DNA of 45,507 bases from contig JAQWEN010000001.1 in assembly GCA_028704885.1 (NCBI GenBank), positions 175,172 through 220,678 of the forward strand. Direction: 5' to 3'. The first letter of the stretch is position 1. The number at the start of each line of letters is the position of its first letter. Positions 9,741-28,083 of the stretch are shown piece after piece. The notes below the pieces were generated by a model, which worked only from the letters and a program-made list of their open reading frames with translations, was not told where the DNA came from and searched no databases. The position numbers were made by a program, and so were the translations under genes. The stretch is from Candidatus Shapirobacteria bacterium (GTDB lineage Bacteria > Patescibacteriota > Microgenomatia > UBA12405).

Positions 9741-10529
9741 TCAAAATTTTCCAAGTAGTTTAATCTCAAGCTCAAATTGAAAACCGAGAATTTCTTGAGT
9801 TTTAGATTGAATTAGACTGATTAAGGCCAAATAATCTTTAGCAGTGGCGTGACCATTGTTGATAATAAAATTGCCATGTTTTGGGTTGATTTGCGCGTCG
9901 CCGATAGAATAACCTCGTAAATTTAGTTGTTGATCAATAATCATGCCGGCGGGGTCATGACCTTCTGGGTTTTTAAAAACAGAACCCAAAGAATTCATTA
10001 ATTGAACTTGAGATTTTTTTTGGATAATTTCGGAAACTTCAGCTTTGGCAGAAGTTGAGTTACCAGGGATTAATTTTAAAACAGTGGAAATAATAAAATC
10101 GTTGTATTTTTCAACTGAATCAACAAATTTGGAAAAATGATTTTTATTAACTCCGTGAATATCACCGATAATGGCACCACCAACAGTAGAAGGAATATAG
10201 GCAAATTCTTCAAGGCCGAGTAAATTGTGGTCGAGAGTGAAATTGATTAAAGAAGATAATTGAGTACCGGAAGAAACTTTTACCTTATTATCAGGTAGAA
10301 GTTCGATTTCTTCGGAGTCATTTTTGATGACCAGGCCGCGAATGCCAGAATCAGAAATTAAAACATTTGAACCATTGCCGAGGATGGTAATGGGTAAATT
10401 ATTATCTTGACCATATTTAATAGCGGCAATTAACTCCTCTGAATTTTTAGTGTGAATGAAAAAGTCAGCAGGACCACCGATTTTAACGGTGGTGTAAGGA
10501 GCAAGAAGAACGTTTTGTTGAATATCCAT
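9741..10529 (-). CDS. murB: UDP-N-acetylmuramate dehydrogenase (short form)
   Basis: LAPYTTVKIGGPAD, LGNGSNVLISDSGIRG, IPSTVGGA, SLGSVFKNP, HGNFIINNGHATAKD, FELEIK. Confidence 0.9.
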   Translation of the reverse strand: MDIQQNVLLAPYTTVKIGGPADFFIHTKNSEELIAAIKYGQDNNLPITILGNGSNVLISDSGIRGLVIKNDSEEIELLPDNKVKVSSGTQLSSLINFTLDHNLLGLEEFAYIPSTVGGAIIGDIHGVNKNHFSKFVDSVEKYNDFIISTVLKLIPGNSTSAKAEVSEIIQKKSQVQLMNSLGSVFKNPEGHDPAGMIIDQQLNLRGYSIGDAQINPKHGNFIINNGHATAKDYLALISLIQSKTQEILGFQFELEIKLLGKF

Positions 10530-10639
10530 AAGTGATTATAACCTAAACGAAAAATTGCAACTTCAAAATTCGTTTTTAGGTTTAAATAGTGGCTTATAAA
10601 ATAAATGTTTTTGAATAATAAAAAAATATGGGATGTTGA

Positions 10640-10648: not shown

Positions 10649-10705
10649 GTGGGTAAAATTGAAGATATCCTATATTTTTATTAGGCTGATTTGCTATCAT
10701 TAATT

Positions 10706-16847: not shown

Positions 16848-17903
16848 ATGAAACCAGTAATAATCTGCGGGGGAATTGGCAGCAAGATGTGGCCAATGAG
16901 CCGAAGCACTATGCCAAAGCATTTTTTACCATTGGTTAATGGTAAATCTTTATTTCAATTAAATTGGGAAGCTTTGAGAAAAAGATTTAGCCCGGAAGAA
17001 ATATTTCTGCAAACTAATGAAGTTCAGGCTAAAATTGCTAAAGATTTAGTTTCAGAAATTGTCGAAGAGAATATTTTTGTGGAACCAGAAATGAGAAATC
17101 AAGGCCCGGCAACTGGATTTGCAGCAGCTCAATTGATTAAAAGAGGATTTGGAGATGAACCCTTTATTTTGGTTCAGGCAGATGTTTTAAGAGAACCGGA
17201 TGAAAAGTTCTTAGACATGATTGGGGAACAGGAAAAATTAGGTAAATCGACCGATAAATATATTACTGGGGGATTTATGCCTCAGTCAATAGTTAGGGGG
17301 GTAGATTATTTGGTTAAAGGAAATTTGGTAAGCGAAAATAATGGGGTGAAAATATTTGAAGTGGCTGATTATATTGATAGAAGCGAGGAAGAAAAAATTA
17401 AAGAATATTTGGGAACTGATAAATTGTTACTCCATGCTAATCATACTTCGATGACGTCAAATAATTTATTAAAAATGTATCAAAAATATAAACCGGAATG
17501 GTATGAACCATTAGTAGCGATTGCCAATAATGGCGAGGTAGTGAGTGAATATGCCAAAATGCCAAAGGCAGGAATCGAAGAGGTGACTAAATTGGTTTAT
17601 AAAAGCGGAGAAGCATTAGTAGTTGAATTGCCCTTTAATTGGGTTGATTTTGGGACTTGGGAATCGGTGGCTAATTATATGAAAGAAAAAGGAATGTATA
17701 AACCAGAAGATGTTTTAGAAATTGATGGTCAAGATAATTTTGTTTATAAAAAAGATAAAAAATACGTGGCTTTGATCGGAGTGGAAAATTTAGTGGTAAT
17801 AGATACTGGTGATGGACTTTTGATTACCAAAAAAGATCAAACTGGAAAAGTGGGGATGGTGGTCGATAAATTGAAAGAAGAAAACAGAGTGGAGTTGTTA
17901 TGA
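16848..17903 (+). CDS. Mannose-1-phosphate guanylyltransferase-like nucleotidyltransferase
   Basis: PVIICGGIGSKMWPMSRSTMPKHFL, EPEMRNQGPA, FNWVDFGTWESV, VALIGVENLVVIDTGDGLLI. Confidence 0.88.
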   Translation: MKPVIICGGIGSKMWPMSRSTMPKHFLPLVNGKSLFQLNWEALRKRFSPEEIFLQTNEVQAKIAKDLVSEIVEENIFVEPEMRNQGPATGFAAAQLIKRGFGDEPFILVQADVLREPDEKFLDMIGEQEKLGKSTDKYITGGFMPQSIVRGVDYLVKGNLVSENNGVKIFEVADYIDRSEEEKIKEYLGTDKLLLHANHTSMTSNNLLKMYQKYKPEWYEPLVAIANNGEVVSEYAKMPKAGIEEVTKLVYKSGEALVVELPFNWVDFGTWESVANYMKEKGMYKPEDVLEIDGQDNFVYKKDKKYVALIGVENLVVIDTGDGLLITKKDQTGKVGMVVDKLKEENRVELL

Positions 17904-18382
17904 AAAATGACGAGTTTTACATTAAAAAATGTATAGAATTGGCTGAATTGTCGGTTAAAAATGGTGAAGCACCGTTTGGAAGTTTGATTGTTAAAAACGG
18001 GAAGATAATTGTTAAAGTGACCAACGCTAATGAAAAAAAACATGATGTAACTAGTCATGCAGAAATAATGGCCATGAGAAAAGCGCAAAAAAAACTTAAG
18101 AGTAAAGATTTAAGTGATTGTGAAATTTATTCAAATTGTGAACCTTGCCCGATGTGTTCTTTTATGATGAGAGAATTACATTTCAAAAAAGTAGTTTTTG
18201 GGGTTAGATCGCCTAATATGGGTGGTCATAGTAAATGGAATGTTCTACAAGATAAAGGACTTTCTCAAATTAAACCTTATTTTAGTGATGAGCCGGAGGT
18301 GATTGGGGGAGTTTTGGAAAAAGAATGCAAAGAAACTTATACAAAAATTGGTTGGGGTGATTTTTTGGAAAAGATAAAATAA
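17900..18382 (+). CDS. Zinc-dependent nucleoside/nucleobase deaminase (TadA/guanine deaminase-like)
   Basis: GEAPFGSLIV, HAE, EPCPMC. Confidence 0.88.
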   Translation: MKNDEFYIKKCIELAELSVKNGEAPFGSLIVKNGKIIVKVTNANEKKHDVTSHAEIMAMRKAQKKLKSKDLSDCEIYSNCEPCPMCSFMMRELHFKKVVFGVRSPNMGGHSKWNVLQDKGLSQIKPYFSDEPEVIGGVLEKECKETYTKIGWGDFLEKIK

Positions 18383-19776: not shown

Positions 19777-20199
19777 CTAGACATTGAAAACAAAGCAGAC
19801 ATTTGCAGAAGGATAATTTGTTTTGAAGTTATTGTCCCTTTCTCCGTCAAAGAAGAAAATTTTACTACCTTTTTTGACGAATATTTTTGATTTGTCTGCT
19901 TTTTCGAGTTTAAAATCACCGTTGATTTTGAAGGTAGACTCTTTGTTTATGGTTAAAACTAATCTGCCACAATTGTCGGTGTTGATTATCGTACCATTGA
20001 TAATGGTTAATCCATTAACAAGTTCCGTGGTCACTGTGCCTTTGGTGATTTTGATCTCTCCTTTAACGATGTTTCCGTAAAAATCAGAGGGGAGAAGATA
20101 CCAATTGTCGTCGACTTTTTTAATGTCTATTTCAATTGTAGTTCTACCGATGGTTTTCTCATCATTTTCGTTTTTGACCAAAGCTTTGAATTGCAACAT
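19777..20199 (-). CDS. Orphan hypothetical protein (cassette D), beta-rich
   Basis: 140-aa ORF with SD AGAAAGGAG and its own promoter and terminator. Confidence 0.7.
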   Translation of the reverse strand: MLQFKALVKNENDEKTIGRTTIEIDIKKVDDNWYLLPSDFYGNIVKGEIKITKGTVTTELVNGLTIINGTIINTDNCGRLVLTINKESTFKINGDFKLEKADKSKIFVKKGSKIFFFDGERDNNFKTNYPSANVCFVFNV

Positions 20200-20339
20200 G
20201 TTTGTTGCTCCTTTCTATTTTAAGCCTTTTTGGCTTGGTTCACCATGTTTCTAAAAATACCTATACCTATCCACCGAGCATTAACTCATCTCCTTTCTTT
20301 TTTTTAAAGTACATTTTGCTTTGCGATTAAAGCAGGGGA

Positions 20340-20383
20340 ATTATAACATTATAGGGTATAAAAGTCAAGATTATAGGATAGAA
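20340..20383 (-). promoter_or_regulatory. Sigma70 promoter of cassette D with two boxes; contains the right 25-bp repeat
   Basis: TTGACT(20368-20363)-17 bp-TATAAT(20345-20340); TATCCTATA at 20372-20380 and TACCCTATA at 20350-20358. Confidence 0.85.
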
Positions 20384-20404
20384 CTTAGGAAGTTTTTGAC
20401 AAGA

Positions 20405-20453
20405 AAAACCCCGAAATGACTTTATAGATTACACTATAAGCGTTCGGGGTTTT
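20405..20453 (-). terminator. Two-tier terminator of cassette E/F
   Basis: AAAACCCCGAA/TTCGGGGTTTT outer and TTATAG/CTATAA inner stems. Confidence 0.8.
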
Positions 20454-20458
20454 GATCG

Positions 20459-20716
20459 TTATTCGCAATACATTTCTTCTTGAATGAAAATTTTTTGGAT
20501 GTCAGACATACTTATTTCGGTAGAATTATCATCCAAAAGATGAAAGCCATTAAGTTTTTTTATTTTGGGGAGATCCTTGATACGAACGGAAACATCGTAA
20601 TGGCTATTAGCGTATTCAATATATCTGAAACCAAGAGAATTGAGGATTTCCTTAGTTTCTGCGGCGACCAACGTCCTTAAATCGTCATCCATAAGCTGAA
20701 TTTGAATTTTTTTCAT
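20459..20716 (-). CDS. Orphan hypothetical protein (cassette E/F, gene 2)
   Basis: 85-aa ORF with SD AAAGGAGG, 19 bp after the previous stop. Confidence 0.65.
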   Translation of the reverse strand: MKKIQIQLMDDDLRTLVAAETKEILNSLGFRYIEYANSHYDVSVRIKDLPKIKKLNGFHLLDDNSTEISMSDIQKIFIQEEMYCE

Positions 20717-20735
20717 TTTTTAACAGCCTCCTTTA

Positions 20736-21389
20736 TTAGACGAGGTGTTTGAAGGGATGTTCGAAAAAAAGAACTAATTCAGGATGTCGATGTTTGACAT
20801 TTTTAGCAATAGATTCAATGGAATGTTTACTGGAGATTAGATTATTTCCTTGACCGATAAAAATTCGAGAATAAAACTCACTGGTAATGTCGGCGGCAAT
20901 ATATTTATTCAAAATAATTTTGTCCTTTAAATGAAGCAGATAAAAATTAGCTGGTACAGTAGTAACTTCAGAAATATCTTTAAGTGATGGATAATTTTTT
21001 GGATTAGTATGTTGATTAAGATCAAGACAGGTTTTAATATATTCAAAGTCAGATTGATGAAGATAAACTTTTCCAGGAAGGGTATTGTCAATAAAGTGAT
21101 TAATTTGGTTTTTGGAAATAACAGTTTTCATAGCTTGGTTATTTTCGTATAAGCGAATGTTTCTCTTTAAAAAAGGTTTTTCCTGTTCAATCTGATATAC
21201 TAATGTTCGGACAAGTTTTTCGTTTTTGGGATCGTATAAAAGAAAGAGATTGCCATTTTCCCTTTCAAAGGAAAGATAAAAACGCTGTTTTTCTTGATTA
21301 AGAAGATTGATCAAATCAGGTATCAAAATTTGATTGGTATACCTAACGAAAGTATTGATTGTTCCCTGACTGCTAATTGCATAAACCAT
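20736..21389 (-). CDS. Orphan hypothetical protein (cassette E/F, gene 1)
   Basis: 217-aa ORF with SD AAAGGAGG. Confidence 0.72.
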   Translation of the reverse strand: MVYAISSQGTINTFVRYTNQILIPDLINLLNQEKQRFYLSFERENGNLFLLYDPKNEKLVRTLVYQIEQEKPFLKRNIRLYENNQAMKTVISKNQINHFIDNTLPGKVYLHQSDFEYIKTCLDLNQHTNPKNYPSLKDISEVTTVPANFYLLHLKDKIILNKYIAADITSEFYSRIFIGQGNNLISSKHSIESIAKNVKHRHPELVLFFEHPFKHLV

Positions 21390-21542: not shown

Positions 21543-22589
21543 ATGAGAAAATTTTGGTGGCTAATATTAATTTTAATAGTAATCGGAATTAGTTATTGGT
21601 TTTTAAACAATAGAGAAATAGAGATAATTAATCCGTTAGTTAAAACTGAAAAAATAGAAAAAAATACTGGCTGGTTGGCTAAATATAATTTTGAAAACTT
21701 AAGAAAAAGAGAAAATAAAGCGTCGGAAATTAAAACAGTTGGTAAAGTATTGGTAGTAGAAGAGGCTAGAAAAGAATTAATTAAGAGAGGGGACTTGGAA
21801 GGAAAGAAATTTAATTTTGAAAGTAAAGCAATTAGTTTTGAATCGAACGGTAAAAAAATAAGTGGGATGATGAATATACCAATGACACCAATGAGTAATA
21901 AATTACCAACAATTATTATGATTAGAGGATTTGCCGAATCGGAAGGATATTTTATTGGATCTGGTAGTTGGAAAGCGGCCGATGAATTGGCGCGAAATGG
22001 ATTTATAACCATAAGTTTGGATTTTTTGGGATTTGGATTGTCTGACAGTGAATCGACTGATATTTTGGAGGCGAGATTTGAAAAACCAATGTCAGTTCTG
22101 GACTTAATTGAGTCAGTTAAAAGTTTAGATATAGTTGATAGTGAAAAAATTGGAATATGGGCACATAGTAATGGTGGTCAAATTGCGATTTCAGTTTTAG
22201 AAATTACCGGGCAAAGTTATCCGACGGTGTTGTGGGCACCAATGACCAATCCTTTTCCTAAAAGTGTTTTGGAAATGGTTGATGATCAAAGTGAAGGAAG
22301 TTTGAAGGTAAAACAAAGGATAGAAGAATTTGAAAAAGAATATGACAGTAAACTTTATTCGATTGATAATTTTTATGATTGGATAGAAGTACCAATATTA
22401 ATTCATCAAGGAACGGCTGATGTATGGTGTAAAGTTGAGTGGCAACAAGATTTACAGAAAAAGTTAAAAAAATTAGGAAAGGAGGTGATCTTGGATATTA
22501 AAGAAGGAAGTGACCATAATTTAAAACAGAGTTGGCAGGAAGTAATGGATGAAGATATCAAATTTTTTAAAGAAAAATTTGGAATTTAA
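21543..22589 (+). CDS. Membrane-anchored alpha/beta hydrolase (S9 peptidase/esterase-like)
   Basis: N-terminal anchor; nucleophile elbow WAHSNGG, IHQGTAD, SDHNL give a Ser-Asp-His triad. Confidence 0.85.
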   Translation: MRKFWWLILILIVIGISYWFLNNREIEIINPLVKTEKIEKNTGWLAKYNFENLRKRENKASEIKTVGKVLVVEEARKELIKRGDLEGKKFNFESKAISFESNGKKISGMMNIPMTPMSNKLPTIIMIRGFAESEGYFIGSGSWKAADELARNGFITISLDFLGFGLSDSESTDILEARFEKPMSVLDLIESVKSLDIVDSEKIGIWAHSNGGQIAISVLEITGQSYPTVLWAPMTNPFPKSVLEMVDDQSEGSLKVKQRIEEFEKEYDSKLYSIDNFYDWIEVPILIHQGTADVWCKVEWQQDLQKKLKKLGKEVILDIKEGSDHNLKQSWQEVMDEDIKFFKEKFGI

Positions 22590-22614
22590 AATAGGGTTTA
22601 TCAAAGGTTAAATT

Positions 22615-22633
22615 TAGGTTATAATAACCTATA
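22615..22633. promoter_or_regulatory. Palindromic operator candidate overlapping the -10 box
   Basis: TAGGTTA-TAA-TAACCTA perfect inverted repeat over TATAAT (22620-22625); right half reads TAACCTATA. Confidence 0.6.
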
Positions 22634-22659
22634 GATAATAATTATAATTTTTCTGTTTT

Positions 22660-23235
22660 ATGAAAATATATTTTATAGCATCTTCTCGATTAGTTGGAGC
22701 TAGTCCAAAACTTTATTCAAAAATGTATGCCTATTTGTCAACTCAAGGCAAAATGGTAAGTGATAAAGTGATGAAGTGGATAAAAACGGGAATTAAAGAT
22801 ATAAGTGGAGCACCGCTTAAATTTACAAAAGAAAATTATATTCAATCGTTAGATGCCGTTAAAAAAGCTGATATTGTGGTAATGGAAACTTCTGGTCATA
22901 GTATGTCGATGGGATATTTAATTGGTAAAGCCTTAGAAATGAATAAGCCAGTGATTGCTTTGCATGATATAGAACATATTCCAGCCTTTATTCAGGGTAT
23001 TAATGATCCAAAATTGATAATTTCAGAATATAAGGAAGGGGATGTGGAAGAAATTATGGAAAAAGCTTTAAAAAAGGCAAATAGTTTAATTGATGTTAGA
23101 TTTAATTTCTTTGTAAGTTCGAAAATATTAAATTATTTAGACTGGGTGTCACAGAAAAAAATGTTGCCAAGATCAGTATTTTTAAGAGACTTGATTGAAA
23201 AAGAGATAAAAAAGGATAAAGAATTTAAAATGTAA
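22660..23235 (+). CDS. Nucleoside 2-deoxyribosyltransferase-like domain fused to a C-terminal ribbon-helix-helix domain
   Basis: KIYFIAS...ADIVVMETSGHSMSMGYLIGKALEMNKPVIAL resembles the NDT fold; RFNFFVSSKILNYLDWVSQKKMLPRSVFLRDLIEKEI fits RHH/CopG. Confidence 0.7.
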   Translation: MKIYFIASSRLVGASPKLYSKMYAYLSTQGKMVSDKVMKWIKTGIKDISGAPLKFTKENYIQSLDAVKKADIVVMETSGHSMSMGYLIGKALEMNKPVIALHDIEHIPAFIQGINDPKLIISEYKEGDVEEIMEKALKKANSLIDVRFNFFVSSKILNYLDWVSQKKMLPRSVFLRDLIEKEIKKDKEFKM

Positions 23236-23237
23236 GA

Positions 23238-24314
23238 ATGAACATTTTTGATAGATGGAAAAAAGTTTACGAGTCGTTGAATTTGATCGAAATTAATGAA
23301 AGAAATTTGTTGAATAATTATGATTTTTTTGATAATTTGGGAAAAGAGCAAATATGGCCAGTGTTGAAATCAAATGCTTATGGACATGGAATTAGACAAA
23401 TTGCAGAAATTTTATTAAAAAGAGATTTTGAATATTTTGTGGTGGATGGTTATCAAGAGGTTTTGGAAATTAGAAAAATAACAAAAAGACCAGTTTTAAT
23501 GATTGGAACTATTTTGCCATCTAATTTTTCGAAAATAAAATGGAAAAATTTGGCAATAATGATTCAAGATAAAAGAACATTAATAGCTTTGGGAAAATTA
23601 AATAAACATATCAAAGTGCATCTAAAAGTGAATACGGGAATGAATAGACAGGGGATTGAGATCGTAGATCTTAGATCGTTGATTGGGGAAATAAAAAAAT
23701 ATCCAAAACTAGAACTAGAAGGAGTTTTTTCGCATTTGGCGGGAGTGAATGATAGTGAGCAAATAAAAAGATTTGAAGAAGTAATCAAAATAGTCGAAAA
23801 TAATGGAATAGAAATAAAATTTTTTCATTTGGCGGCGACGTCGGGGGTAGGAAAAATAAAAAATAAAAAAATTAATGCAGTAAGATTGGGAATTGGATTA
23901 TATGGAATAGGAAAAGGATTAAAACCGGTATTAAAACTAAAAAGTAAAATAACTAAAGTGAGGGAAATTGAAAAAGGGAAAAAGGTTAGTTATGGAGGGA
24001 CTTTTGTAGCGACAAAAAAGACAGTTGTTGGAGTGATTCCAGTGGGTTATTTTGAAGGACTAGATCGAAGATTGAGTAATAAAGGATTTGTTAAATACAA
24101 AAATAAATTTTATCCAATAGTTGGCCGGGTTTGTATGAATATGGCAATAGTTAATTTTGGGAAAGTTAGACCAAAATTATACGATGAAGTGGAGGTAATC
24201 AGTAATAATTCAAAAGACAAAAATTCAATTGAAAAAATGGCAGAAATTTGCGAAACGATACCTTATGATCTATTGGTGGAAATTAATTCATCGATTAGAA
24301 GAACGATAGTTTGA
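23238..24314 (+). CDS. alr: Alanine racemase
   Basis: VLKSNAYGHG (PLP lysine), HLKVNTGMNRQG, FSHLA, VRLGIGLYG, VSYGGTF, GRVCMN, TIPYDLL. Confidence 0.95.
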   Translation: MNIFDRWKKVYESLNLIEINERNLLNNYDFFDNLGKEQIWPVLKSNAYGHGIRQIAEILLKRDFEYFVVDGYQEVLEIRKITKRPVLMIGTILPSNFSKIKWKNLAIMIQDKRTLIALGKLNKHIKVHLKVNTGMNRQGIEIVDLRSLIGEIKKYPKLELEGVFSHLAGVNDSEQIKRFEEVIKIVENNGIEIKFFHLAATSGVGKIKNKKINAVRLGIGLYGIGKGLKPVLKLKSKITKVREIEKGKKVSYGGTFVATKKTVVGVIPVGYFEGLDRRLSNKGFVKYKNKFYPIVGRVCMNMAIVNFGKVRPKLYDEVEVISNNSKDKNSIEKMAEICETIPYDLLVEINSSIRRTIV

Positions 24315-24325
24315 TTTGGTTTTCA
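24301..24325 (+). repeat. Perfect 25-bp direct repeat, left copy (alr 3' end)
   Basis: GAACGATAGTTTGATTTGGTTTTCA, identical to 26894-26918. Confidence 0.95.
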
Positions 24326-24346
24326 TTTTTACTGTTATACTTTTTT

Positions 24347-26878
24347 ATGCCAGAGAAAAGTGGTGGAGAATTTTTAAATATCAAATATCCTGATTTACAA
24401 AAATCAGAACAAGTTCAAAAATCAGTTGAACAAAAGAAAATAAAAGAAGGAGTTAAAACACCTAATAACCCAAAAGATAGAAATGAAGTCTTATTGGAAA
24501 GATTTGAAAGAATCTTTGAAAATCCAGATGAAGAAACTAGAAAAAGAAATATCAATTTATTTACCGAAAAATTTTTGTATCCGGAAGTATTAATTGATAC
24601 AAATAATGTCCCTGAAAACTACTTTGAGTTACAAAAGAAGATTGCCAGAGAAAGAGGTCATGGAGATGTTGAATTTGATGATCGAACAAAAAAAGAAACA
24701 GGAAAAACTCTTTATGATGATCAGAAAAAATCGCTTGATGTTTGGATAAATTATTTAAGTGACAAAAATACTGATTATCCAACTTGGTTTAAATATTACA
24801 CTCTAAGAAGTGTCCTTAAAATGGGTAATTATGATAAAGAAAAACATGAGTTTGGAAAAAGAACTAAAAATACTACCAATATTTTCCCAGATCTAAACAG
24901 AGAAGCATTGTCTTATTCTTACGACACTTTATCTAAACATTATCTTAAAGGTGAAAAACACGATAATGATGAATTAAATAGAATTTTAGAATCAGCTAGA
25001 TTTGATAAGATTTACGCTTTTGCAATTGATAAGGCCACTCCAGTTTCTAAGGAAAACAAAGAAAAAACAGAAGGAGAATGGACTAAATACAATCAAGGTG
25101 ATGATGCCACTCCACTTTACGAATCACTTCAGGGTCATGGAACTAATTGGTGTACAGCAGGAGAGGAAACTGCCAGAAGACAACTTAAAGATGGTGATTT
25201 TTATGTTTATTACACTAAAGATGAAAACAATAGAAATACTATCCCAAGAATTGCCATTAGAATGGAAAATGGCCAAGTAGCTGAAGTTAGAGGTGTGGCT
25301 GATAAACATCAAAACCTAGAAGGTAGGATGACTGAGATTGCCAGAGAGAAGTATTCACAACTACCAGGTGGAGAAAAGTTTGATAAAAAAGATCAGGATA
25401 TGAAATTATTAACTTTGATTGATAAAAAAACTAAAGATAATCAGGATTTAACTAAAGAAGAACTTAAATTTCTCTATGAAATAGACAATAAAATTGAAGG
25501 GTTTGGATATCAAAAAGATCCAAGAATTGAAGAAATTAAAAATCAAAGAAATACAATATTAGATCTAAATTTTATTTTTGAAGGAGTAGAAGAATATTCT
25601 GGCAATCTTGATTTAAGGAATCTTCAATCAGCTGAAGGATTAGTCTTACCGGAAGAGGTTGGCGGTGATCTTCGTCTAGATCATCTTAAATCAGCCGAAG
25701 GGTTAGTTTTACCTAAAAAAATCGGAATATCTTTATTTTTATTAGAATTGAGTTCTAATGAAGGATTGGTTTTACCGAAAGAGATTAAAGGCAATCTTTT
25801 TTTAAACAATCTTATTTCAACTGAAGGATTGGCTCTACCGGAAGAAATTGGATGTGATTTTATATTAGGTAATCTTCAGTCAGCCGAAGGGTTAGTGTTC
25901 CCTAGAGAAATTGGAGGTAGTATTGATTTATCTAGTCTTAAATCAGCTGAGGGGTTAGTTTTACCAGAAAAAATTGGTGGTGATCTTCAATTACGCCGTC
26001 TTCAATCAGCCGAAGGATTGGTTTTACCTAAAGAAATTGGTGGTGATCTTCAATTAGGTAGTCTCCGTTCAGCCGAAGGGTTAGTGTTACCTAAAGAAGT
26101 TGGAGGTAGTCTTGATTTACATGGTCTTCAATCAGCCGAAGGGTTAGTTTTACCAGAAAAAATTAATGGTAATTTTTATCTACACGATCTCGAATCAGCT
26201 GAAGGATTAGTTTTACCTAAAGAAATTGGTGGTGATTTTTATTTAGGTAATCTTCGTTCAGCTGAAGGATTAGTGTTTCCTAAAGAAGTTGGAGGTAGTC
26301 TTGATTTAAATGGTCTTAAATCAGCTGAAGGATTAGTTTTACCAGAAAAAATTAATGGTAATTTTTATCTACACAATCTCGAATCAGCCGAAGGATTGGT
26401 TTTACCTAAAGAAATTGGTGGTGATCTTCAATTAGCTCGCCTTAAATCAGTAGAGGGACTGATGTTATCTGGTAAGATTGGAAATAATCTTCACTTAAAT
26501 AGTCTTCAATCAGCCGAAGGATTAGTTTTACCAGAAGAGATTAAAGGTAATCTTAATTTAGATAGTTTAGAATTAGCCGAAGGGTTAGTGTTCCCTAAAG
26601 AAATTGGTGGTGATCTTCGCTTAAATAGTCTTCAATCAGCTGAGGGATTAGTTTTGTCTAAAGAGATTGGAAAAAGTCTTTACTTAAATGGTCTTAAATC
26701 AGCTGAAGGATTAGTTTTACCAGAAAAAATTGGAGATAGTCTCACTGTAAATAATCTTAAATCTTTTGAAGGAATTAAAATATCAAAGAAATCGGTTTAT
26801 TTTGTTTGGTCATCCAATTTAGATCAGACTGAAAAGAATTATTTGGAGAAAAAATATCCGAGATTAATCTTTAATTAA
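24347..26878 (+). CDS. Large protein: unknown N-terminal domain plus about 18-19 22-aa leucine-rich-like repeats
   Basis: Likely start MPEKSGG at 24347, just after TGTTATACT (extended -10); repeat consensus L(Q/K)SAEGLVLP(E/K)(E/K)IGGxLxLxx. Confidence 0.85.
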   Translation: MPEKSGGEFLNIKYPDLQKSEQVQKSVEQKKIKEGVKTPNNPKDRNEVLLERFERIFENPDEETRKRNINLFTEKFLYPEVLIDTNNVPENYFELQKKIARERGHGDVEFDDRTKKETGKTLYDDQKKSLDVWINYLSDKNTDYPTWFKYYTLRSVLKMGNYDKEKHEFGKRTKNTTNIFPDLNREALSYSYDTLSKHYLKGEKHDNDELNRILESARFDKIYAFAIDKATPVSKENKEKTEGEWTKYNQGDDATPLYESLQGHGTNWCTAGEETARRQLKDGDFYVYYTKDENNRNTIPRIAIRMENGQVAEVRGVADKHQNLEGRMTEIAREKYSQLPGGEKFDKKDQDMKLLTLIDKKTKDNQDLTKEELKFLYEIDNKIEGFGYQKDPRIEEIKNQRNTILDLNFIFEGVEEYSGNLDLRNLQSAEGLVLPEEVGGDLRLDHLKSAEGLVLPKKIGISLFLLELSSNEGLVLPKEIKGNLFLNNLISTEGLALPEEIGCDFILGNLQSAEGLVFPREIGGSIDLSSLKSAEGLVLPEKIGGDLQLRRLQSAEGLVLPKEIGGDLQLGSLRSAEGLVLPKEVGGSLDLHGLQSAEGLVLPEKINGNFYLHDLESAEGLVLPKEIGGDFYLGNLRSAEGLVFPKEVGGSLDLNGLKSAEGLVLPEKINGNFYLHNLESAEGLVLPKEIGGDLQLARLKSVEGLMLSGKIGNNLHLNSLQSAEGLVLPEEIKGNLNLDSLELAEGLVFPKEIGGDLRLNSLQSAEGLVLSKEIGKSLYLNGLKSAEGLVLPEKIGDSLTVNNLKSFEGIKISKKSVYFVWSSNLDQTEKNYLEKKYPRLIFN
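25601..26790 (+). repeat. 66-bp coding tandem repeat array
   Basis: Recurrent TCAGC(T/C)GAAGG(A/G)TT(A/G)GTTTTACC at 66-bp period, with a near-identical three-unit duplication. Confidence 0.92.
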
Positions 26879-28083
26879 GCTAAATTAGCTTTTGAACGAT
26901 AGTTTGATTTGGTTTTCAGCCAAAATTTGGATTGGCGGCAGATTCTATAAACATCAGAAGGATTTTTGAGAATTGATTTGACTAATTCCTCTAAGAAAAT
27001 AGTATTTTGAGAACCTTTGACCAAAATGGTTTCGCAGCCAGTAATTGTTTCTTTTAAAAATTCGGCGGCAGTCCACCAATTGACAAATTTTTGAGTTTTA
27101 TCACCAAAATATTTAGAGGTTTCTGGACCGACAGAAATAATTAAATCAGCTGATTTTAAGGCTTGATCATAAATTTTTCGATGTTCTTCTGGGGTGGCAT
27201 CACCAAGTTCGCGCATGTCGCCTAAAACAGCGATTTTTTTACTTTTAAAACTAGATAAAAACTTGAGTAATTCAGAACAAGCAATGGGAGAAGAGTTGTA
27301 AGAACTATCGATAATAGTGGTATTTTTAATGCCTTCTAAAATTGAAGAGCGGGACGGGGGAAGAGAAAAATTATCTTGAATATTTTTAACAGCTTCGTTG
27401 TAGTTAATATTAAAAATTTGAGCCAAGCTGAGGGCGGCGCCGAAACTGACTTGGTAAATATCAGGAAGATAAAAATTATCAAATCTAATTTTGGTGGGAG
27501 TAAGATTAATAATATTTTTATTTTGAGTGTATTTTTTGACTAGTTTGTCTTGATTATTAATAATGGCGATTTTGGCTTGGTTAACTAATTTGGCTTTTTC
27601 CCCAGCAATTTGGTCGAGAGAGTTAAATTTGTCGAGATGAACTGGACTAACATTTAAAAAAATAGCAATATTAGGTTTAACAACAGATAAAAGATAATCC
27701 ATATTTTTTGGCCAAGAAGCAGAGTCAATGCCCATTTCTAGAATTAAAATATCGTAGGATTGCCAATTAATGAGGTATTTAAGAGGAGAAAGAATAAGCA
27801 TTTTAAACCAGGCAAAAAAATTATAGTCATTAAGTTTAAGACCCAAAATACTTAAAGGTAATCCAGATTCAGAATTGCAATTGTTATTAGTTTTAATTTT
27901 GTATTTTTTTGGGAAAACAGATTGACAGGCAATTAAAGCCGAACTTTTACCTGCCGAACCAGTAATACCAATGATGTCTAATTGCTTACCTTTAATTTTT
28001 TGAAGAAACTTGACTTTAGAAAGTTGGAGTTTAGCAAAAAAACGAAGGTAATAGAGAATAAAAAGCGATATTTTTTGTTTCAC
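26875..28083 (-). CDS. murF: Mur ligase, MurF-like
   Basis: IGITGSAGKSS, LILEMG, H-containing NVSPVH, IIDSSYNSSP, AVLGDMRELG, ILVKGSQ. Confidence 0.82.
   Translation of the reverse strand: MKQKISLFILYYLRFFAKLQLSKVKFLQKIKGKQLDIIGITGSAGKSSALIACQSVFPKKYKIKTNNNCNSESGLPLSILGLKLNDYNFFAWFKMLILSPLKYLINWQSYDILILEMGIDSASWPKNMDYLLSVVKPNIAIFLNVSPVHLDKFNSLDQIAGEKAKLVNQAKIAIINNQDKLVKKYTQNKNIINLTPTKIRFDNFYLPDIYQVSFGAALSLAQIFNINYNEAVKNIQDNFSLPPSRSSILEGIKNTTIIDSSYNSSPIACSELLKFLSSFKSKKIAVLGDMRELGDATPEEHRKIYDQALKSADLIISVGPETSKYFGDKTQKFVNWWTAAEFLKETITGCETILVKGSQNTIFLEELVKSILKNPSDVYRICRQSKFWLKTKSNYRSKANLA
26894..26918 (+). repeat. Perfect 25-bp direct repeat, right copy (murF 3' end)
   Basis: GAACGATAGTTTGATTTGGTTTTCA, identical to 24301-24325. 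Confidence 0.95.

Follow-up and report, generated by a model that had tools for sequence, protein, structure and literature searches.

A core protein of Shapirobacteria that joins a DNPH1-like domain lacking the catalytic glutamate to a ribbon-helix-helix domain is probably a ligand-sensing gene regulator

The pairing of a ribbon-helix-helix (RHH) domain with a ligand-binding function is already known from NikR, MetJ and PutA. In NikR the RHH is fused in one chain to a ligand-binding, oligomerising domain, and ligand occupancy controls operator binding; MetJ binds S-adenosylmethionine (SAM) at the RHH dimer itself; and PutA, a large protein with flavoenzyme domains and an N-terminal RHH, couples proline oxidation to transcription, as a so-called trigger enzyme. 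Here we describe a fusion protein of 191 amino acids (aa) that is encoded in a 45,507-nucleotide stretch (the window) of contig JAQWEN010000001.1, from a Candidatus Shapirobacteria bacterium of the Candidate Phyla Radiation (CPR, or Patescibacteria; assembly GCA_028704885.1, 0.78 Mb, 32% G+C). Its N-terminal domain has the nucleoside deoxyribosyltransferase (NDT) fold and resembles DNPH1/Rcl, a 2'-deoxynucleoside 5'-phosphate N-hydrolase of the PF05014 clan, and its C-terminal domain bears the signature of an RHH. What is new with respect to the known regulators is the sensor fold, the order of the domains and the history from enzyme to receptor; no account of an NDT/DNPH1-RHH fusion was found in full-text searches of a collection of papers. 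The protein is small, strongly conserved and part of the core genome of Shapirobacteria, and we conclude that it probably regulates genes in response to a ligand. Relatives were compared as numbered loci (L) and genomes (G), the window's own genome being G000.

The N-terminal region had been called NDT-like in an initial annotation made from the sequence, and the comparisons bear this out. Residues 3-136 align with mammalian DNPH1/Rcl structures in a phmmer search of the PDB (4fyh, E 2e-8), while no Pfam or NCBIfam model matches the fusion protein above threshold: the Pfam NDT model PF05014 (Nuc_deoxyrib_tr) reaches 12.7 bits, under its gathering cut-off of 28.8, and NCBIfam gives no match. 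AlphaFold2, run with 34 orthologues, gave a model with a mean predicted local distance difference test (pLDDT) of 82 and values of ~90 across the N-terminal domain, and this domain matches the DNPH1 fold in Foldseek (E 3.5e-8, target-normalised template modelling score ~0.8). The catalytic residue is missing, as the annotation's reading of MGYL at the position of the nucleophile had suggested. HMMER aligns the segment GVGYELG of DNPH1 with SMGYLIG of the window's protein, which places Leu87 where DNPH1 has its nucleophile Glu; the DNPH1 motif S-x-x-V-G-Y-E-L-G corresponds to S-M-S-M-G-Y-L-I-G, so the Glu in G-Y-E-L/I-G that marks an active enzyme is absent. Residue 87 is L or I in all 34 close orthologues. 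In the same set Y4, S8, R10 and S81 are invariant, D71 is at least 90% conserved, and E76 and G85 are conserved too. Ser8-x-Arg10, Ser81 and Asp71 are the residues that hold the 5'-phosphate and the sugar in DNPH1, and they are retained while the Glu is gone.

Close homologues number 625, and those that carry a name belong to Shapirobacteria or Woesebacteria. When the HMMER search was extended, the matches grouped into 838 clusters at 50% identity; 343 clusters passed E ≤ 1e-10, and most of these have both domains at full length. Of the genomes compared, 32 of 33 in the same genus and 96 of 121 in the order carry the gene, as does most of the taxonomic family, usually in a single copy; across the phylum the distribution of the fusion is patchy. 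Replacement of the Glu holds for the window's protein and its clade, but not as a trait of the whole family, as 23 of 55 distant representatives and 30 of 93 family proteins (80 species loci) still have Glu at position 87, and the sequence G-H-E is retained by ~40% of the wider family. Two types can be told apart among the 93 proteins, one with S-x-R ... G-Y-[L/I/V], which includes the window's protein, and one with G-H-E, in which the Arg is often lost. By maximum likelihood, the Glu-type proteins branch at the base of the tree and are paraphyletic, and all 62 hydrophobic-type proteins, which carry L/I/V or another non-Glu residue at position 87, form one nested clade (95/74 support). The Glu/non-Glu label requires just two changes across the tree, which indicates that the Glu was lost once, in a single ancient event nested within Glu-bearing forms. 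The inactive form has been retained at 60-83% identity between species, and a single inactivation followed by such long retention argues for a pseudoenzyme kept for binding.

Some genomes carry several copies. Tandem arrays of three to four fusion paralogues occur at L059 (1991-3740), L076 (3221-5570), L078 (2759-5570), L073 and L053; some of the arrayed paralogues are translationally coupled, and all carry the strand R-F-N-(F/L/M)-(F/L). At L017 one Leu-type and one Glu-type copy lie 1.7 kb apart. The NCBI records of several gene-bearing contigs (L007-L011, L053, L054, L073 and others) are labelled 'uncultured Gammaproteobacteria', 'Methanoperedens', 'Methylococcaceae' or 'Limisphaerales'. 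Many of these contigs have the same CPR neighbours, and they are probably mis-labelled or mis-binned metagenome-assembled genomes and not cases of horizontal spread.

An RHH-like C-terminal segment had also been proposed, and it is supported by the relatives of the window's protein. The Pfam models RHH_3 and RHH_1 match 19/35 and 10/35 of the family's C-terminal segments (best E 1.4e-5 and 1.9e-6, respectively). Searched with a family profile of the segment, the PDB gives CopG repressors as the top matches; the strand and both helices are in the correct register, but E is weak, at 0.04-0.09. In the AlphaFold2 model two helices follow an extended strand segment; the strand has a pLDDT below 50 and is unmodelled in the monomer, which is expected because an obligate-dimer fold was predicted as a monomer. 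The strand alternates in the manner of RHH proteins, with hydrophobic residues facing inward and a nearly invariant Arg-x-Asn-x-Phe facing outward, ahead of two helices in the expected topology. R176 is the same in all of 55 representatives, which have 27-48% identity to the query, and R147, F148 and N149 are kept in at least 90% of them. P-(R/K)-(S/A) is kept before helix 2, where it corresponds to the helix-2 N-terminal phosphate-contact motif of RHH domains.

Set beside DNPH1/Rcl, the N-terminal domain has the same fold and keeps the Tyr, Ser-x-Arg, Asp71, Ser81 and G-Y, whereas the fusion protein differs in Leu87 for Glu, in Pro108 (aligned by eye) for the Ser contributed by the partner subunit, and in the additional C-terminal RHH. 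It shares with NikR the logic of an RHH plus a ligand domain, but the RHH of NikR is N-terminal, its sensor has an ACT-like metal-binding fold, and there is no sequence relation outside the RHH. CopG, Arc and MetJ resemble the C-terminal domain, and the candidate operator described below likewise consists of short phased repeats over a promoter; those proteins, however, are mostly stand-alone or N-terminal RHHs, whereas the fusion protein has a separate 137-aa sensor ahead of the RHH. The Glu-bearing relatives, possibly catalysts and regulators at once, find their closest analogue in PutA. Because the catalytic residue is lost, the window's protein, unlike PutA, can only sense. The likeness to NrdR (Zn-ribbon plus ATP-cone) is one of function only, since in this small and widely conserved repressor the nucleotides bound determine the binding to DNA; both of its domains are of unrelated fold, and its boxes and target genes are known.

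The inactive form is under strong constraint with its phosphate-binding residues intact, and a ligand-sensing RHH regulator is therefore the best reading of the protein. We propose a one-component transcription factor in which a catalytically dead DNPH1/Rcl-type nucleotide-binding sensor is joined to a C-terminal RHH output, and we give this a probability of about 0.6. The RHH ribbons would dimerise. DNPH1 domains are dimeric in DNPH1, and the DNPH1-like dimer interface is probably also used here, which would give a NikR-like assembly with two DNA-binding heads. A nucleoside-5'-monophosphate-like ligand would be bound, not hydrolysed, and would alter the affinity for DNA. The initial annotation had arrived at a one-component nucleotide-sensing repressor in charge of a set of sequence boxes; of this we keep the two domains, the lost nucleophile and the idea, which follows from these, of a ligand sensor with RHH output, but not the link to the boxes. 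The features of the locus are collected in Table 1.

Table 1. Coordinates of the fusion gene, its domains, its upstream elements and its neighbours in the window
Feature	Position	Strand	Basis or remarks
DNPH1-like/RHH fusion gene	22660..23235	+	191-aa open reading frame; 625 homologues, nearly all 190-191 aa
N-terminal DNPH1/Rcl-like (NDT-fold) domain, residues 1-137; pseudoenzyme, putative ligand-binding	22660..23070	+	phmmer against PDB, AlphaFold2, Foldseek
Codon TTA, Leu87, at the position of the DNPH1 catalytic nucleophile Glu	22918..22920	+	HMMER alignment GYELG/GYLIG
C-terminal RHH domain, residues 141-191	23080..23232	+	strand D-V-R-F-N-F-F-V, then helices 154-165 and 173-190
Perfect 8-1-8 palindrome TAGGTTATAATAACCTA (TAGGTTAT-A-ATAACCTA) over the -10	22615..22631	.	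candidate operator or chance perfection of the promoter
Best sigma-70-like promoter, TTATCA (22598-22603)-16-TATAAT (22620-22625)	22598..22625	+	G at -14, extended -10 type
Block TA[A/C/G]CCTATAG-(A/C)TAATAATTATAAT	22625..22648	+	holds box-like 9-mer and second TATAAT (22643-22648); 7 closest species
Half-site-like words AGGGTTT and AAGGTTA	22593-22599; 22604-22610	+	exact 11-bp steps with TAGGTTA (22615)
Membrane-anchored alpha/beta hydrolase	21543..22589	+	Pfam S9/Hydrolase_4/Abhydrolase_1; 48/80 loci, same-strand upstream in 46
Alanine racemase (alr)	23238..24314	+	start 3 nt past the fusion stop; Pfam, TIGR00492
MurF-like Mur ligase, most conserved neighbour, convergent	26875..28083	-	Mur_ligase_M/C; 65/80 loci, opposite-strand downstream in 62

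Three observations made earlier on the DNA upstream of the gene were confirmed: a perfect palindrome covers the -10 box, its right half (TAACCTATA) is identical at 8/9 positions to the sequence TATCCTATA, referred to below as the box, and related half-sites lie further upstream, at steps that are exactly, and not only about, 11 bp. GGTT cores stand at 22595, 22606 and 22617 and are followed by the inverted AACC. The second TATAAT lies 11 nt ahead of the ATG, and there is no Shine-Dalgarno sequence. The protein thus has phased repeats and a dyad over its own promoter, as an autoregulating RHH would, but an operator conserved at orthologous promoters was not found. Among the 15 closest orthologues, six others keep the block TTAaGtTATAcTAcCCTATAG-N-TAATAATTATAAT with only 5-6/8 symmetric pairs (L005, L006, L007 and L010 among them), and the palindrome is perfect solely in the window's genome. 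In four more (L009, L012-L014; proteins 72-75% identical) the block is lacking and a minimal promoter lies within the 3' end of the hydrolase gene, and three further orthologues are arranged differently; these four carry the same R-F-N-F-F strand, L009 differing just at the next residue (V152I). L005 and L015 have the distal GGGTT at an unchanged distance but lack the middle copy, and the box-like 9-mer of the right-arm block recurs in L005, L006, L007, L010, L015 and L020.

It is only a little less probable than an even chance that the upstream symmetry is a chance perfection of an extended -10 together with a conserved transcription-start or leader sequence, and that the gene is constitutively expressed and has no operator. 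In its left arm, (A)GGTTATAAT, the palindrome has a generic extended -10 (G at -14), and GGTTATAAT recurs 5-7 nt ahead of the ATG of murB, glyS, a GNAT gene and an epimerase gene, and also upstream of a tRNA. More generally, TRTAG or GGT upstream of TAnAAT is a lineage-wide -16/-14 element that is also found at unrelated strong promoters. With inverted repeats defined by arms of at least 7 nt, at least 2 G/C per arm and a spacer of 0-5, one would expect ~17 perfect ones in 57.7 kb of shuffled intergenic DNA, about one for each window, and GGTT triplets phased at 10-12 bp occur 3 times genome-wide against 1.6 expected. The promoter-only explanation leaves over the combination of three GGTT words at 11-bp steps and an inverted AACC, which is rare (local chance ~1e-4, uncorrected for the choice of core), and the right-arm block, which is conserved in the 7 closest species while the flanking intergenic DNA is not; RHH regulators, moreover, commonly autoregulate. 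We regard autoregulation through the phased GGTT/AACC array over the gene's own promoter as less likely than not, although the array is the best candidate site in this genome. The operator claimed earlier stands as a dyad with 11-bp phased GGTT over the gene's own -10, and falls short in that it is perfect only here, is absent in four sister species and has a generic left arm.

Several candidates for a more widely shared site were rejected. A family-wide operator is not apparent, as 61 upstream regions anchored on the -10 show only the extended -10 (T-R-T-R-G), with no -35 and no dyad. T[AG]TAGTAnAAT appeared to be gene-specific (19/27 copies), but its other copies stand at unrelated strong TTGACA promoters, and it is therefore a general promoter element. 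A peptidoglycan regulon through TAGGTTATAAT, which murB shares, was set aside since the other genes with GGTTATAAT-N5-7-ATG encode a GNAT protein, glycyl-tRNA synthetase (GlyRS), an epimerase and a protein of no assigned function. GGTT between the -10 and the ATG is eightfold enriched over control genes, but at only 13/74 related loci, and is a lead only. Comparison of the regions upstream of paralogues gave no common motif, several of these genes being simply translationally coupled.

The conserved feature across the family is instead TAnAAT set 5-7 nt before the ATG and preceded by T-R-T-R-G, which implies a leaderless mRNA in many orthologues; an extended -10 at this distance was seen at ~29/61 fusion-orthologue loci. 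Many other genes of the genome appear leaderless or nearly so, with an extended -10 (GGT-TATAAT or TRTAG-TAnAAT) 5-7 nt before the ATG and no Shine-Dalgarno sequence, examples being murB (9741-10529), glyS, and the GNAT and epimerase genes. Such extended -10s lie at 10527-10545 (-) and 22617-22625 (+) of the window and at C1:516906, 385489 and 325932 of G000. A stem-loop with compensatory changes (GTCCC-loop-GGGAC), followed by AAAGGGTTT, stands 25-45 nt before the -10 of the orthologue in L021, L025, L027 and L032. It is probably the terminator of the upstream gene, and accounts for the recurrence of the word AGGGTTT at these loci.

Several observations weigh against the protein being a ligand-sensing transcription factor. 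The window's own 51-aa C-terminal segment matches no Pfam RHH model, and it is modelled, as a monomer, at a pLDDT of 57-70 only. The second phosphate-binding Ser of DNPH1, which comes from the partner subunit, aligns by eye with Pro108, and the DNPH1-type pocket is therefore not fully conserved. No operator motif beyond the extended -10 is common to orthologues (73 loci) or paralogues, despite the invariant residues of the reading head, and paralogues of the same genome do not differ in their R-F-N-F-F strand, an unusual finding among sequence-specific regulators; invariant reading-head residues across paralogues could point to a non-DNA or a non-specific partner. The synteny with murF and alr described below may also be just frozen gene order, because the arrangement is convergent.

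Part of this would be accommodated if the family were not transcription factors at all but nucleotide/nucleoside N-glycosidases or transferases that use the RHH for oligomerisation or tethering, the Leu87 clade being an inactive structural or scaffolding derivative. In keeping with such an origin, the Glu-bearing G-H-E forms are ancestral and occupy the same genomic slot, and one fusion paralogue at L078 is divergent from a radical-SAM gene (MTNLPV...CNLRCKICY), which suggests a metabolic setting; the identical strand among paralogues and the missing common operator are likewise odd for specific DNA readers. We nevertheless consider this explanation unlikely. It has to set aside the RHH signature, which includes the classic outward Arg/Asn and the P-R/K-S phosphate-contact motif at the N terminus of helix 2. 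It also leaves the window's clade without a nucleophile and still 60-83% identical across species, so that something besides catalysis is under selection, and enzymes that double as RHH regulators exist, as PutA demonstrates.

The genomic setting of the gene is fixed for both Glu and non-Glu types: an alpha/beta hydrolase gene (+) is followed by the fusion gene (+) and by a MurF-like ligase gene (-). The slot sits between rplJ and rplA, within an insertion that splits secE-nusG-rplKA from rplJL, and at the 80 loci rplJ was found 51 times, the hydrolase 48, the Mur ligase 65 and rplA 47, with Alr or Ddl often adjacent. The top NCBIfam match of the MurF-like ligase is murF, under its cut-off. 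Other genes in the region are less stable. Between rplJ and the hydrolase, three small open reading frames (140, 85 and 217 aa; 19777-21389, -), which had been called orphan cassettes, are present in 0-1 of the 80 loci; the 217-aa one has a weak, sub-threshold match to the ABC-3C 'Middle Component 1' model PF20289 (E 0.0015), and in the relatives L001 and L003 other small reading frames occupy the same place, which makes it a variable hotspot. An 855-aa protein encoded between alr and murF (24311-26878, +) consists of ~23-residue 'SAEGLVLPKEIGG(D/S)L' repeats and was seen at 0/80 loci. Directly before rplL lies a gene of the dCMP/cytidine deaminase family (17900-18382, +; PF00383, E 1e-24; 3/80 loci), a further nucleotide-salvage gene near the fusion.

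In three genomes of a subclade of genus g3 (G049, G061 and G037, loci L088, L089 and L090) the fusion gene is lacking, and no copy was found elsewhere in these genomes. Two of the contigs end 1-2 kb past the slot, but the absence is not an assembly artefact, as the rplJ-murF interval is contiguous in all three (in G037 on a 534-kb contig). The hydrolase and the fusion are replaced there by two other genes, a ~100-aa reading frame (MKKE(I/T)V...) and a HAD-like phosphatase ((I/V)FDFDGT(V/L)ADTF), apparently a clean exchange of genes where the surroundings have stayed frozen.

A far-reaching scheme can be built on this setting, to which we attach little credence. The ancestral Glu forms would be DNA-bound (deoxy)nucleoside monophosphate or nucleoside N-glycosidases that couple nucleotide turnover to transcription in the manner of PutA, and the Leu87 clade, as a core gene between rplA and rplJ and beside murF, alr and ddl, would read the salvaged nucleotide pool of auxotrophic episymbionts and set growth-related expression of cell-wall precursor and ribosomal genes through a conserved operator. 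A trigger enzyme would thereby have become a pseudoenzyme sensor and a lineage-wide global regulator.

Very improbable, in turn, is the original form of the regulatory proposal, in which the protein represses its own promoter through the palindrome and, through TATCCTATA boxes, silences the orphan cassettes until a nucleotide signal appears. Besides the 8/9 identity of the right arm, it can draw on the placement of the box, which has 13 copies in the genome against ~6.5 expected. Ten of these are intergenic, and five lie in the window, beside -35 elements or within promoter spacers; boxes of the window include those at 10666, 15747, 16315 and 20372, the last three in promoters. Box-like 9-mers with at most one mismatch occur within 120 nt upstream of the orthologue at 15/73 loci against ~2 expected, and a variable cassette slot adjoins the fusion gene in several genomes. 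These points weaken on closer comparison. The enrichment at 15/73 loci shrinks to ~2 independent events plus the gene's own extended -10 (TATAGTATAAT) read on the other strand, and one-mismatch variants in the window, including that of the palindrome, number 15 against 14.6 expected. Across 24 genomes the box is as frequent as a reversed-pattern control, in a similar ratio in genomes with the protein (158/144) and without it (43/35). The cassette reading frames are unique to this genome, whereas the supposed regulator is ancient and invariant. Co-occurrence of the protein and the motif across genomes, put forward with the proposal as its test, also failed: when the sequences of G049 and G061, both without the fusion gene, were read, exact boxes were seen to flank the single Xer-like recombinase gene, and the boxes of G037 have the same clustered spacing. 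Persistence of the motif in genomes that lack the family is the outcome which the initial annotation itself had named as a refutation. Control of the TATCCTATA box cassettes does not lie with the fusion protein.

The box itself is better explained as part of a promoter core, as a site linked to the xer locus, or as both. The TATAA/TATAG at its 3' end coincides in part with -10 or extended -10 cores, and read as its reverse complement the box is similar to the TATAG-TAnAAT promoters of the lineage. In the window's genome, but outside the window itself (C1:269699-269747 and 271300-271475), xer is preceded at ~600 bp by three direct TCCTATAAT/TATCCTATAG copies and followed closely by two ACCCTATAGT copies. 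Loci L085, L086 and L087 of genus g3 carry a dif-like inverted pair, TATCCTATAAT-N10-ATTATAGGATA, upstream of xer and two direct copies downstream. A search of the window's genome for the inverted box pair found none anywhere, only direct copies near xer. As a lead, we note that a recombinase may act at the box and that the cassettes could be modules between Xer sites.

C-terminal RHH domains occur in HicB antitoxins and a variable gene slot is nearby, which might suggest a defence or toxin-antitoxin-like module in which an NDT-like effector is combined with an RHH part acting as antitoxin or regulator. Folds of the NDT/SLOG-like kind are known from defence systems, Thoeris ThsA among them (PMC11204291), but a defence framing, already present in the initial annotation, is hardly tenable for a near-universal, single-copy core gene (32/33 genus genomes) in a fixed slot of the ribosomal-protein cluster, with no PADLOC match for the protein or its neighbours, no conserved partner besides housekeeping genes at the 80 loci, and the catalytic residue lost.

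For annotation, it follows that TATCCTATA boxes and cassettes are not to be assigned to the fusion protein as its regulon; the box and the orphan cassettes need another explanation, as promoter modules or xer-linked sites. To our knowledge, CPR bacteria have very few recognisable transcription factors and no de novo nucleotide synthesis, and their genetics is not yet possible. If the proposed reading is right, a regulator that is near-universal in a whole family would pair an RHH with an inactivated nucleotide-monophosphate pocket, and DNPH1/NDT would be a new sensor fold among one-component regulators. The protein would then be a clean natural case of an enzyme turning into a receptor, and would offer a testable handle on how CPR bacteria sense the supply of host-derived nucleotides.

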